From assembly GCF_000341395.1 (NCBI RefSeq), contig NC_020304.1, forward strand, positions 1,920,001 through 1,952,000: DNA of 32,000 nucleotides, read 5' to 3'. Of the stretch, positions 26,584-28,248 are shown in pieces. How positions within the stretch are numbered: position 1 is the first letter of the stretch; each line of letters begins with the position of its first letter. This DNA comes from Desulfocapsa sulfexigens DSM 10523 (lineage in GTDB: Bacteria > Desulfobacterota > Desulfobulbia > Desulfobulbales > Desulfocapsaceae). Below the pieces are notes generated by a model. The model was not told the DNA's origin, did not search any database, and was given only the letters and a program-made list of their open reading frames with translations. Position numbers and translations under genes: made by a program.

Positions 26584-28248
26584 CTAAAACGTTTCCGTAG
26601 GTGGCTCGACCAGGTGATCATCCGTGAAATCACCGAAGTCGTCGTCATCGTCGCCACCATCGTCATCATCATCACCGCCATCATCGTCATCATCATCGCC
26701 ACCATCATCTCTGTCATCATCGTCATCATCATCGTCATCATCGTCATCGTCGTCATCATCGTCATCATCGTCGTCATCATCGTCATCATCATCATCGTCG
26801 TCATCGTCGTCATCATCGTCGTCGTCATCGTCATCATCATCGTCGTCATCATCATCGTCATCATCATCGTCATCATCATCGTCGTCGTCATCATCGTCAT
26901 CATCATCGTCATCATCGTCATCGTCATCGTCATCATCGTCATCATCGTCATCGTCATCATCGTCGTCATCATCGTCATCATCGTCGTCATCGTCGTCATC
27001 GTCGTCATCGTCGTCATCGTCGTCATCATCATCGTCATCATCATCGTCGTCATCATCGTCATCATCGTCATCATCGTCGTCATCATCGTCATCGTCATCA
27101 TCATCGTCGTCATCGTCGTCATCATCATCGTCGTCATCATCATCGTCATCATCATCGTCATCGTCATCATCGTCGTCATCGTCGTCATCATCGTCATCAT
27201 CGTCATCATCGTCATCATCGTCATCATCATCGTCATCGTCGTCATCATCGTCATCGTCATCATCGTCGTCATCGTCGTCATCATCATCGTCATCATCGTC
27301 ATCATCATCGTCGTCATCATCATCGTCATCATCGTCGTCGTCATCGTCATCATCGTCATCATCATCGTCATCATCGTCGTCATCGTCGTCATCGTCATCA
27401 TCGTCATCATCGTCATCGTCGTCATCGTCATCATCATCATCGTCGTCATCATCGTCATCATCGTCATCGTCGTCATCATCACCTGGCGTCGTTGGAGTCT
27501 GCGTCGGTGTTTCAGTCGGTGTTTCAGTCGGTGTTTCGGTCGGTGTTTCGGTCGGTGTTTCAGTCGGTGTGTCTGTTGGAGTAGTCGTCGGAGTAGTCGT
27601 CGGAGTAGTCGTCGGAGTGGTCGTCGGAGTGGTCGTCGGTGTAGTTGTCGGTGTAGTGGTCGGTGTGGTCGTTGGGGTAGTCGTCGGAGTAGTCGTTGGA
27701 GCCGCTCCTTCTGGAGGTGTCGTTGGAATATTTGGATCTAAAAAGCTTCTGTCTACTCCAGTTGTTTCCGCTCCACTAACTGGTGTTACAGCTTCACCGG
27801 TTAAATTGAACACGGGATAACTGGCACCGCCATCACGTGCACCAGCAACACCTCCAGCCCCTGCGGCCGGACCGGCTGCTGTTGCTGGTAATTCTGTTGT
27901 AGGATCAAATGTGTCGTTTGCCTCTAATGCTTTCTGGACGTCTGCAACCTCACTGGTCGCTTCGGTAAAATCTTCAGTAGGACTCTGATTGTAGACCTCT
28001 TCATCAATGACCACATCAGAATTCCGGCCCAAGCTTAACACTGTATGCTCAGGGTCGTTAAAGTTGATAGAAATTCTGCCATCCCCTCCAGTCAATATGC
28101 GCTCATCAGCAAATATAGGACTGTTAGGTGCAAGCGTCCGCATCGACCCATCAGGGGCAATTGCTTTCACCTCTCCAAAAATGACAAATACCTGCCCAAT
28201 AGGTCCTGCATGGCCAGTGTTTCCAGCTCCGGATGTGTTGTCAGTCAT
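26584..28248 (-). CDS. LapA-like type I secretion substrate: N-terminal retention module, TAAG/PAAG LapG site, (PTTT)n/(PTET)n linker, ~256-residue poly-Asp tract and a 41-aa C-terminal tail
   Basis: GGGAGGA SD before ATG 28248. Residues ~15-87 'IGQVFVIFGEVKAIAPDGSMRTLAPNSPIFADERILTGGDGRISINFNDPEHTVLSLGRNSDVVIDEEVY' match the pattern I know for LapA/RTX-adhesin retention modules. 'PATAAGPAAG' lies at residues 121-130. Every codon from 27480 down to 26713 is GAT or GAC. A terminator lies downstream. T1SS, LapG and LapD genes are in the neighbourhood. Confidence 0.8.
   Translation of the reverse strand: MTDNTSGAGNTGHAGPIGQVFVIFGEVKAIAPDGSMRTLAPNSPIFADERILTGGDGRISINFNDPEHTVLSLGRNSDVVIDEEVYNQSPTEDFTEATSEVADVQKALEANDTFDPTTELPATAAGPAAGAGGVAGARDGGASYPVFNLTGEAVTPVSGAETTGVDRSFLDPNIPTTPPEGAAPTTTPTTTPTTTPTTTPTTTPTTTPTTTPTTTPTTTPTTTPTDTPTETPTETPTETPTETPTETPTQTPTTPGDDDDDDDDDDDDDDDDDDDDDDDDDDDDDDDDDDDDDDDDDDDDDDDDDDDDDDDDDDDDDDDDDDDDDDDDDDDDDDDDDDDDDDDDDDDDDDDDDDDDDDDDDDDDDDDDDDDDDDDDDDDDDDDDDDDDDDDDDDDDDDDDDDDDDDDDDDDDDDDDDDDDDDDDDDDDDDDDDDDDDDDDDDDDDDDDDDDDDDDDDDDDDDDDDDDDDDDDDDDDDDDDDDDDDDDDDDDDDDDDDDDDDDDDDDDDDDDDRDDGGDDDDDDGGDDDDDGGDDDDDFGDFTDDHLVEPPTETF
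26713..27480 (-). repeat. Low-complexity coding tract: 256 consecutive Asp codons, an irregular GAT/GAC mixture
   Basis: The plus strand reads only atc/gtc triplets, in frame with the CDS. Bounded by GGT (Gly256) at 27481-27483 and AGA (Arg513) at 26710-26712. Confidence 0.9.
27484..27702 (-). repeat. 12-nt tandem coding repeats encoding (PTTT)x~10 and (PTET)x5
   Basis: The plus strand shows repeats of cggagtagtcgt and variants, then cggtgtttcagt and variants. The protein reads 'PTTTPTTT...PTDTPTETPTETPTETPTETPTETPTQTPTTPG'. Confidence 0.9.
27859..27882 (-). other. Predicted LapG (BTLCP) processing site, duplicated: T-A-A-G then P-A-A-G
   Basis: The minus strand reads ACA GCA GCC GGT CCG GCC GCA GGG, giving TAAGPAAG (residues 123-130). 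This matches the di-alanine (T/P)AA(G) motif described for LapA-type substrates. Its position ~35 residues after the retention module is as expected. Confidence 0.6.

Follow-up and report, generated by a model that had tools for sequence, protein, structure and literature searches.

A conserved poly-aspartate protein of Desulfocapsa sulfexigens with a LapA-type retention module: a candidate Lap substrate in an uncharacterised gene neighbourhood

What purpose could a bacterial gene serve that devotes 768 nt to a single amino acid, and how would its product be exported and held? This question is raised by a stretch of 32,000 nucleotides ("the window") of Desulfocapsa sulfexigens DSM 10523 (contig NC_020304.1, positions 1,920,001 to 1,952,000), in which a gene on the reverse strand encodes a protein of 554 amino acids (aa) with an uninterrupted tract of aspartate at residues 257–512. 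An earlier interpretation of the DNA without database searches, herein referred to as the sequence-only reading, had taken this poly-Asp protein for a substrate of a Lap-type type I secretion system (T1SS). On the basis of the follow-up analysis, we assign a probability of roughly 60% to the reading that it is a Lap-type T1SS substrate with a passenger made up of a Thr/Pro stalk and 256 Asp residues, tethered and released by the mechanism proposed below. Translation of positions 26584–28248 (minus strand) confirmed the 554-codon open reading frame (ORF) with its all-Asp segment and reproduced exactly the N-terminal sequence, the 'PATAAGPAAG' motif, the PTTT/PTET stalk and the C-terminal string 'RDDGG...HLVEPPTETF'; the good Shine-Dalgarno sequence and terminator ascribed to the gene are likewise present (Table 1).

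The Lap assignment is based on the N-terminus of the protein and on the genes around it. Residues 20–163 match the NCBIfam model NF033682 ("retention module-containing protein") with 66 bits at a curated cutoff of 50, and the N-terminal profile aligns with PDB 5ix9_A (MpIBP region I; query 15–161 to chain 13–160) at an E-value of 1.2e-12; the proposed check of the N-terminus against the NCBIfam model has, thus, come out in favour of a LapA-type retention module. Pfam gave no match on either the N-terminus or the whole protein, the module being recognised by NCBIfam alone, and an AlphaFold2 model of the N-terminus (five sequences; predicted local distance difference test, pLDDT, 35) was not used for a fold search. 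In LapG substrates, a targeting helix of low conservation and a DP turn are combined with [T/A/P]AAG, whose di-alanine bond is the scissile one (PMC13090378). This signature is present and conserved in the window protein ('EVADVQKALEANDTFDPTTELPATAAG'), in line with the TAAG-PAAG motif of the sequence-only reading; the targeting helix (aa 95–110) is predicted from a low-confidence model, and F114, D115, P116, T117, T118, A124, A125 and G126 are invariant in the alignment of homologues.

Genes for further parts of a Lap system accompany the poly-Asp gene. Immediately upstream and in the same orientation are homologues of lapD and lapG, and the window also encodes the ABC transporter and the HlyD-family membrane fusion protein of a T1SS (Table 1). 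A gene for TolC (PF02321) would be located just past the window end, as shown by locus L039 (retrieved loci are given L numbers throughout), which is 97% identical over LapD/LapG and contains TolC directly upstream of LapG. In L104, the gene order is LapG-LapD-ABC-HlyD-LuxR, directly followed by a poly-Asp gene with a retention module, and L104, L166 and L168 have the Lap/T1SS genes together with the poly-Asp gene in a single uninterrupted neighbourhood. A conserved 109-aa ORF, which is divergent from the ABC gene in the window, is kept at 40–52% identity in the same position in eight related Lap loci. That poly-Asp passengers do pass through a T1SS is best supported, albeit indirectly, by the protein of L129, in which a retention module (58.9 bits), an acidic C-terminus and canonical RTX repeats (PF00353, 101.9 bits) occur together with a run of 261 Asp residues (D261). 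Our own retention-module hidden Markov model failed on this protein, probably due to compositional bias, and NCBIfam then recognised it; the proteins of L007, L008, L104 and L129 all pass NF033682. At the level of sequence, the Lap reading holds.

In the proposed mechanism, the protein would be exported C-terminus first via the LssB-type ABC transporter, HlyD and TolC. The retention module would be left behind to plug TolC, and the cell surface would thereby display the polyanion of about −300 charges together with its stalk. Upon a drop of cyclic di-GMP (c-di-GMP), LapD would free LapG, which would cut at TA↓AG and release the protein.

Is the tract genuine? A succession of 256 codons for one amino acid cannot be attributed to chance. 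All 256 codons, 148 GAT and 108 GAC, specify Asp without interruption, at a GAT share of 58% versus 71% in the neighbouring genes. The order of GAT and GAC is aperiodic; the longest repeated codon word comprises 15 codons (shuffle mean, 14.5), and since this is about chance level, reads of a few hundred bases tile the tract uniquely. The longest run of the same codon is 4, compared to 9.1 expected, and none of 5000 shuffles yielded one as short. Selection against slippage-prone pure repeats would give precisely this interspersion; it is missing from some orthologues, with runs of 16 and 27 identical codons in L003 and L008, respectively. A recent expansion by pure trinucleotide slippage was considered and rejected, given the scrambled, non-periodic codon pattern. 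The D. sulfexigens chromosome (CP003985) is a finished sequence of 45% G+C assembled from Sanger fosmids and 31x 454 data (PMC3739170); the G+C content of the window is 45.0%.

The tract could alternatively be an assembly artefact or belong to a decaying pseudogene, or the true reading could be poly-Ser or Ile/Val, from a different frame or the opposite strand. The GAY repeat leaves five of the six frames open, the majority of metagenomic contigs end inside the tract, and one contig from ENA (P0001) has 10 Asp codons only, followed by a different C-terminus. Against these explanations stand the finished source genome, the non-periodic and uniquely assemblable codon pattern with its avoidance of homocodon runs, the proper Shine-Dalgarno sequence and terminator and, importantly, at least five independent assemblies in which a tract of at least D107 is spanned and the homologous C-terminus resumes in frame. 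Furthermore, the significant N-terminal domain is linked to the Asp frame only, which is also the only frame that joins the conserved N-terminal domain with the conserved C-terminus. We, therefore, regard an artefactual or misread tract as highly improbable; the tract is real. The other ORFs over the tract, in the remaining frames and on the opposite strand, encode poly-Ser, Ile/Val and Met/Thr, and were rejected as genes, including the opposite-strand poly-Ser ORF, in view of their nature as by-products of the GAY repeat. The terminator hairpin downstream of the stop codon folds with −32.9 kcal/mol (z = −3.3); it was not picked up by a consensus scan of the window because its loop measures 9 nt.

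Relatives of the poly-Asp protein were sought with its N-terminal 183 aa and by a scan of GTDB species genomes, and were found, with the same architecture, in a clade of metagenome-assembled genomes of Desulfocapsaceae and Desulfobulbaceae. The protein of L003 (91% identity) has a tract of at least D475 which runs off the contig, and the contigs of L004–L006 break inside the tract. Complete versions are available from L007 (254-kb contig; D108; ending ...LVDPPEDI) and L008 (366-kb contig; D621 followed by a C-terminal domain of ~120 aa). L039 contains D123+D264; the protein of L156 ends in ...DDHLVESPTETF; that of L168 is composed of a retention module, a (PTTPTGT)n stalk, D107, a domain and further D-runs and ends in ...VPQPEETF, and L166 encodes a protein of the same type. 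Through the metagenome scan described below, which had also yielded L039 and L156, L122, L104 and L129 were added as retention modules with poly-Asp tracts. The stalk unit (PSTT, PTVT, PTTPTGT) and its copy number vary among the orthologues, and both tract length and stalk unit differ widely even among close relatives. Aligned with each other, the window and L039 agree only weakly in their synonymous pattern, with many indels. The extreme C-terminus in the Desulfocapsaceae clade can be written as [LIV]-x-[DE]-x-P-x-[ET]-x-[FIY].

Two observations concern the C-termini of this family. A small domain with the consensus 'HGISYVAF.L.DG.VVKVEGF...IKAGP.', for which Pfam has no match, is located C-terminal of the tract in L008, L166, L168 and L129, whereas the window protein lacks it; its L008 and L129 versions are related with a BLASTP E-value of 2e-5. 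The already mentioned P0001 (L001 10001–10771, a megahit contig) encodes an L008-type retention module, and its C-terminus—LPTTG, a hydrophobic helix and RRKA—resembles a sortase-type signal; two explanations come into question, a short allele and a chimera assembled across the repeat.

Poly-Asp tracts are not confined to this clade. Scanning of metagenome contigs for (GAY)66 yielded at least 120 stretches. When 134 loci (120 metagenomic and 14 viral) were scored, the best-supported ORF was in the Asp frame for 71 of them. Among the matches listed, the longest tract is D696 (L060), with D261 (L129) as a further example, and several protein families are represented. The claim that no bacterial protein with an Asp run of this size is known has, consequently, to be dropped in the light of the many metagenomic cases of up to D621 and D696. 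The sequence-only reading had also called for a database scan for retention-module proteins with a homopolymeric Asp or Glu passenger, and here the outcome was divided: L007, L008, L104 and L129 are of this kind, while a HMMER scan of the retention-module profile against 1.84 billion cluster representatives gave 1809 relatives, in the best 148 of which no Asp or Glu run of 10 or more was found. The rarity of the combination in the catalogues is probably due in part to contigs breaking in the tract. The other environmental poly-Asp proteins share GAY tracts of at least 66 codons, and many of them adjoin a member of the 330-aa family introduced below; their N-termini and export routes differ.

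Several groups can be distinguished among these proteins. A second acidic family (L060 7529–10210, L053, L163 3817–5759) has the N-terminus 'MADENTPEEPE...PSAANIHTGD' and, as passengers, D696, (PTT)n with Cys-flanked D76 blocks, or (DDM)n; it adjoins two ABC transporters and HlyD and, in L163, also genes of the 330-aa and Mur ligase-PGA_cap types. In L041, L098, L105, L114, L116, L131 and L145, small proteins with one N-terminal transmembrane helix ('...LVTAPYAFDVNKGKLTKSYAVAKDG') carry D68–D95 and a Ser/Gly-rich tail, and recur in sediment-type metagenomes. The viral contigs from IMG/VR (L026, L027, L035, L037, L031, L033) encode Lys/Ser-rich or Pro/Glu-rich proteins with tracts of D66–D102, the Lys-rich ones carrying D76–D102, and a homologue of the 330-aa protein is found in none of these six loci.

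How does the window protein compare with known systems? The retention module and the LapG site are common to it, LapA of Pseudomonas fluorescens and DvhA (DVU1545) of Desulfovibrio vulgaris, the latter with DvhG and DvhD; the systems are further alike in LapG (BTLCP), LapD (LapD_MoxY_N-HAMP-GGDEF-EAL), a C39-like ABC transporter, HlyD and TolC. DvhA is reported to have been studied via a P. fluorescens reconstitution system (PMC10990149). The difference lies in the passenger, which is a Thr/Pro stalk with 256 Asp in the window protein, and dozens of β-rich repeats, vWA and RTX in the LapA/DvhA type, and in size (554 aa compared to thousands). No Pfam domain and no Ig-like or β-rich tandem domains were detected in the passenger (stalk and D256), and a PF00353 scan was equally without a match, so that the statement that Ig-like and canonical RTX repeats are missing stands. 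The window locus is, moreover, embedded in a conserved cluster of ligase-PGA_cap, (α/α)6 and APH-like genes. With MpIBP of Marinomonas primoryensis (PDB 5ix9), homology is restricted to the N-terminal retention domain at the sequence-profile level, and all beyond differs; MpIBP is described as a 1.5-MDa protein with Ig-like repeats as well as ligand-binding and RTX regions (PMC5014055).

Extracellular proteins with (near-)homopolymeric Asp are otherwise represented by Aspein and Asprich of mollusc shells and by the chicken laminin-binding protein. Such eukaryotic Asp-rich matrix proteins are thought to bind Ca2+ or mineral. They are without homology to the window protein and secreted via Sec/ER, and their pure Asp runs amount to tens of residues versus 256–696; the chicken protein contains 33 consecutive Asp (PMC2115193). 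Cyanophycin (CphA) and poly-γ-glutamate (PgsBCA/CapBCA) are amino-acid polyanions as well, and their enzyme classes, Mur-type or ATP-grasp ligases and PGA_cap/CapA proteins, are also found in the window neighbourhood; while these polymers are made without an mRNA template, the backbone of the window protein is templated by 256 codons. In the searchable literature, no description of a bacterial poly-Asp T1SS or Lap protein was found, in agreement with the statement that no such substrate has been described, and the genome paper (PMC3739170) mentions neither aspartate nor adhesin.

The gene is not isolated, as two of its neighbours recur beside poly-Asp genes, namely, a 330-aa protein (24938–25930) and a fusion of a Mur ligase with a PGA_cap domain (22218–24875). 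The gene for the 330-aa protein lies immediately downstream of the poly-Asp gene in the window, L007, L008, L168 and L166, and homologues of 25–83% identity adjoin a GAY tract in L049, L063, L069, L072, L074, L112, L141, L142, L154 and L156. Its distance from the tract is 0.1–0.7 kb in the window, L007, L049, L063 and L168 and, in L008 and L069/L112, no more than about 1.6 kb; in L072, L074, L141, L142, L154, L156 and L166, it is found beside partial tracts. These loci extend over 26–69% G+C, and the export features of their poly-Asp proteins differ: a retention module in the window, a lipoprotein/LruC-like type in L063, an LPXTG-like type in L072 (with the C-terminal elements PRTSG, a transmembrane segment and RRKK), a haemagglutinin-like N-terminus in L074, and a Cys-flanked tract in L069. 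Given that the loci had been picked solely by the GAY pattern and that the 330-aa family is rare (at least 526 matches in 5.8 billion clusters), the co-occurrence is far above chance. In the reverse direction, an acidic tract is located within 8–10 kb of four of eight sampled family members, or of five if a truncated contig is included. A homologue in the phage-like contig L165 has no poly-Asp gene within 8 kb. The 330-aa protein belongs to no Pfam, NCBIfam, PHROG or PADLOC family; its structural model is an (α/α)6 barrel (pLDDT 96.9) with AGE-type sugar epimerases and GH76 enzymes as the nearest folds (TM-score about 0.75, 12% identity), and 15 basic residues, including five His, are conserved in the family. 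The family could be used as a genomic marker for poly-Asp proteins.

The fusion protein, which is on record as a "CapA family protein" of D. sulfexigens (100% identity), is the second recurrent partner. Its ligase class is exchangeable, being of the Mur type in the window, L007, L161, L163 and L168 and of the ATP-grasp type in L129 and L069; the respective coordinates are 2672–4654 in L129, 5505–7586 in L069, 1–5458 in L161 and 9016–13512 in L163, with varying domain order. The replacement by a non-homologous ligase beside PGA_cap argues for a functional module. In L161, ATP-grasp, two Mur ligase domains and PGA_cap are combined in one giant protein exceeding 2256 aa. The Mur-ligase half in the window is closest to full-length MurF including the N-terminal domain (NF010693, 334 bits), compared with a weak local match to cyanophycin synthetase (TIGR02068); neither a CphA nor a PgsB equivalog was detected in the NCBIfam scan, with no match to a PgsB model.

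These partners are the basis for the alternative that the poly-Asp chain is a ribosomally made scaffold, which would be modified before or during export by the ligase-PGA_cap and 330-aa proteins, the mature polymer not being plain poly-Asp; we consider this rather unlikely. Cyanophycin-like side-chain amidation, branching or epimerisation on Asp carboxylates or stereocentres would be possible chemistries. Mur-like and ATP-grasp enzymes are the two ligase types of cyanophycin synthetase, where they act on Asp carboxylates; Asp or Glu carboxylates are likewise the targets of such ligases in RimK and TTL enzymes. In favour of a modification are the position of the 330-aa family beside poly-Asp tracts over such a range of G+C content and export signals, the recurrence of ligase and PGA_cap with swapped ligase class, and the modelled barrel of the 330-aa protein, which is nearest to AGE-type epimerases, together with the 15 conserved basic residues. 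Furthermore, the PGA_cap family (NF038314 match) includes the peptide epimerase MslH (PMC8179263). What speaks against it is the MurF-like character of the ligase half with its weak cyanophycin synthetase match, according to which the cluster could make a separate peptide or polymer, and the acidic tract being in reach of just four to five of the eight sampled 330-aa loci. In its most extended form, in which a widespread, undescribed system of (α/α)6 and ligase-PGA_cap proteins, often with an APH-like one, turns ribosomal poly-Asp into a surface polymer that is cyanophycin-like, decorated in another way or epimerised, and that in Desulfocapsaceae is delivered and Lap-held under the control of c-di-GMP, the idea is doubtful. 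Polyaspartate is an industrial antiscalant, and the protein could also act mainly after release, as a soluble polyanion that chelates metals or inhibits FeS or carbonate scale; or the tract could serve as a spacer or a Ca2+-driven export ratchet. We rate both versions as improbable. Lap substrates are, indeed, freed by LapG cleavage (PMC13090378), and the extra folded C-terminal domain past the tract in L008, L168 and L129 would fit a spacer. However, the conserved retention module and LapD/LapG genes argue for regulated tethering, and no domain is present distal to the tract in the window protein and L007, so that the tract itself is the cargo.

Several points weigh against a tethered and regulated Lap substrate, which we nonetheless prefer. 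The NCBIfam equivalog cutoffs are missed by LapD (521.7 versus 1020) and LapG (242.7 versus 320), while those of Pfam are passed; judged by these scores, the two are homologues rather than certified equivalogs. A distance of 14 kb separates the T1SS genes from that of the substrate, and the window does not include TolC. The whole window protein has neither a match to the RTX nonapeptide GGxGxDxUx (PF00353), its GG-Dn spacing being irregular, nor a recognisable T1SS signal, and the likeness of its C-terminus to that of conventional relatives is only loose. Even the close relative L039 differs in tract length (at least 387 Asp codons versus 256). Since acidic runs destabilise translating E. coli ribosomes (PMC11162784), the efficient synthesis of 256 Asp is not self-evident. 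Finally, the conserved ligase-PGA_cap and (α/α)6 neighbours suggest that the tract may not stay a bare polyanion; they may modify or handle it, and the "bare polyanionic brush" of the sequence-only reading was overstated. Thus, of this reading as a whole, the observation itself, the retention module and the Lap/T1SS genes were upheld, whereas the uniqueness of the Asp run and the bare brush were not.

Regarding function, the binding of divalent or transition-metal cations or an interaction with iron/sulfide minerals, for adhesion, capture or anti-encrustation, would be most likely. [quoted passage not shown] Such a function would probably be exerted jointly with the 330-aa (α/α)6, ligase-PGA_cap and APH-like neighbours.

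For a Lap substrate, the homopolymeric passenger is unprecedented, and the conserved but uncharacterised genes around it may conceal new biochemistry. With this protein, a homopolymer would be encountered for the first time as the cargo of a Lap/T1SS substrate; being devoid of RTX, the protein also puts the requirements for T1SS substrates to the test. Tracts of 256 to about 700 Asp also challenge current views on poly-acidic nascent chains (PMC11162784). For geomicrobiology, where a cultured marine sulfur disproportionator meets ferric iron, FeS and pyrite, attachment to minerals could be controlled, or encrustation prevented, by a regulated polyanion on its surface; for gene discovery, the conserved partners point to biochemistry acting on poly-Asp, with the 330-aa family as a marker for such systems; and for biotechnology, a genetically encoded, secreted polyaspartate would be a biodegradable antiscalant and chelator.

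Table 1. Coordinates of the poly-Asp gene, its elements and the neighbouring genes within the window
Feature	Position	Strand	Remarks
Conserved 109-aa ORF, divergent from ABC gene	9535..9864	-	No family match
T1SS ABC transporter, LssB type, N-terminal C39-like domain	10172..12340	+	TIGR03375 916.6 bits vs 693
T1SS HlyD-family membrane fusion protein	12337..13746	+	TIGR01843 405.6 bits vs 208.65
LuxR/GerE-type regulator	13870..14478	+	After HlyD in most related loci
788-aa protein, C-terminal APH-type kinase domain	14563..16929	+	
305-aa LPG_synthase_C-like protein	21247..22164	+	Homologues in L129, L161
MurF-like Mur ligase + PGA_cap (CapA) fusion	22218..24875	-	Ligase-PGA_cap pairing recurs near poly-Asp genes
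330-aa (α/α)6-barrel protein	24938..25930	-	Uncharacterised family; most consistent partner of poly-Asp genes
Intrinsic terminator	26500..26551	-	15-bp stem, 9-nt loop, then U-run
Poly-Asp coding sequence, complete	26584..28248	-	554 aa + TAG stop; predicted 60.0 kDa, net charge about -303
C-terminal tail, candidate T1SS signal	26587..26712	-	'RDDGGD6GGD5GGD5FGDFTDDHLVEPPTETF'
Poly-aspartate tract, aa 257-512	26713..27480	-	256 GAY codons, 768 nt
Thr/Pro stalk, aa 182-256 (~75 aa)	27481..27705	-	PTTT / PTET tetrapeptide repeats
Retention module, N-terminal, aa 20-163	27760..28191	-	NF033682 + PDB 5ix9_A profile match
LapG recognition segment	27871..27966	-	Predicted targeting helix aa ~95-110, DP aa 115-116, TAAG aa 123-126
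Scissile TAAG, aa 123-126	27871-27882	-	Within LapG recognition segment
Shine-Dalgarno GGGAGG	28253..28258	-	4 nt 5' of ATG
LapD-type c-di-GMP receptor	28861..30819	-	LapD_MoxY_N (PF16448, 156 bits), HAMP, GGDEF, EAL
LapG-type periplasmic Cys protease	30835..31701	-	Peptidase_C93 / BTLCP, PF06035 57.9 bits vs cutoff 27

With respect to regulatory and RNA elements, a promoter scan gave a number of sites not above that of shuffled sequence, no Rfam model matched at the gathering threshold, not even a c-di-GMP riboswitch in the 612-bp leader, and tRNA genes are absent from the window. Sub-threshold matches to C/D-box snoRNAs within the tract were dismissed as artefacts of the GAT repeat. An exact-sequence look-up of the 554-aa protein and of P0273 found nothing on record, and PADLOC and PHROGs had no entry for the cluster genes.

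Among the remaining neighbours, the 788-aa APH-like protein is encoded next to LuxR-HlyD-ABC in L012, L166 and L168 and is also present in L129. Its ~500 N-terminal residues are without a family match; a possible Pol-β-type nucleotidyltransferase motif (VLGSS...SDFDIYIEL) was noticed by eye. Two tandem paralogues of 342 aa and 76% identity (18824–19852 and 19885–20913, plus strand) have no Pfam, NCBIfam, PHROG or PADLOC match and no homologue in any locus retrieved. On the same strand, 17064–18686 encodes a 540-aa predicted lipoprotein or exported protein with an α/β-hydrolase region and a Lamin Tail Domain, a homologue of which (33% identity, about half the length) adjoins the Mur ligase-PGA_cap gene in L163.

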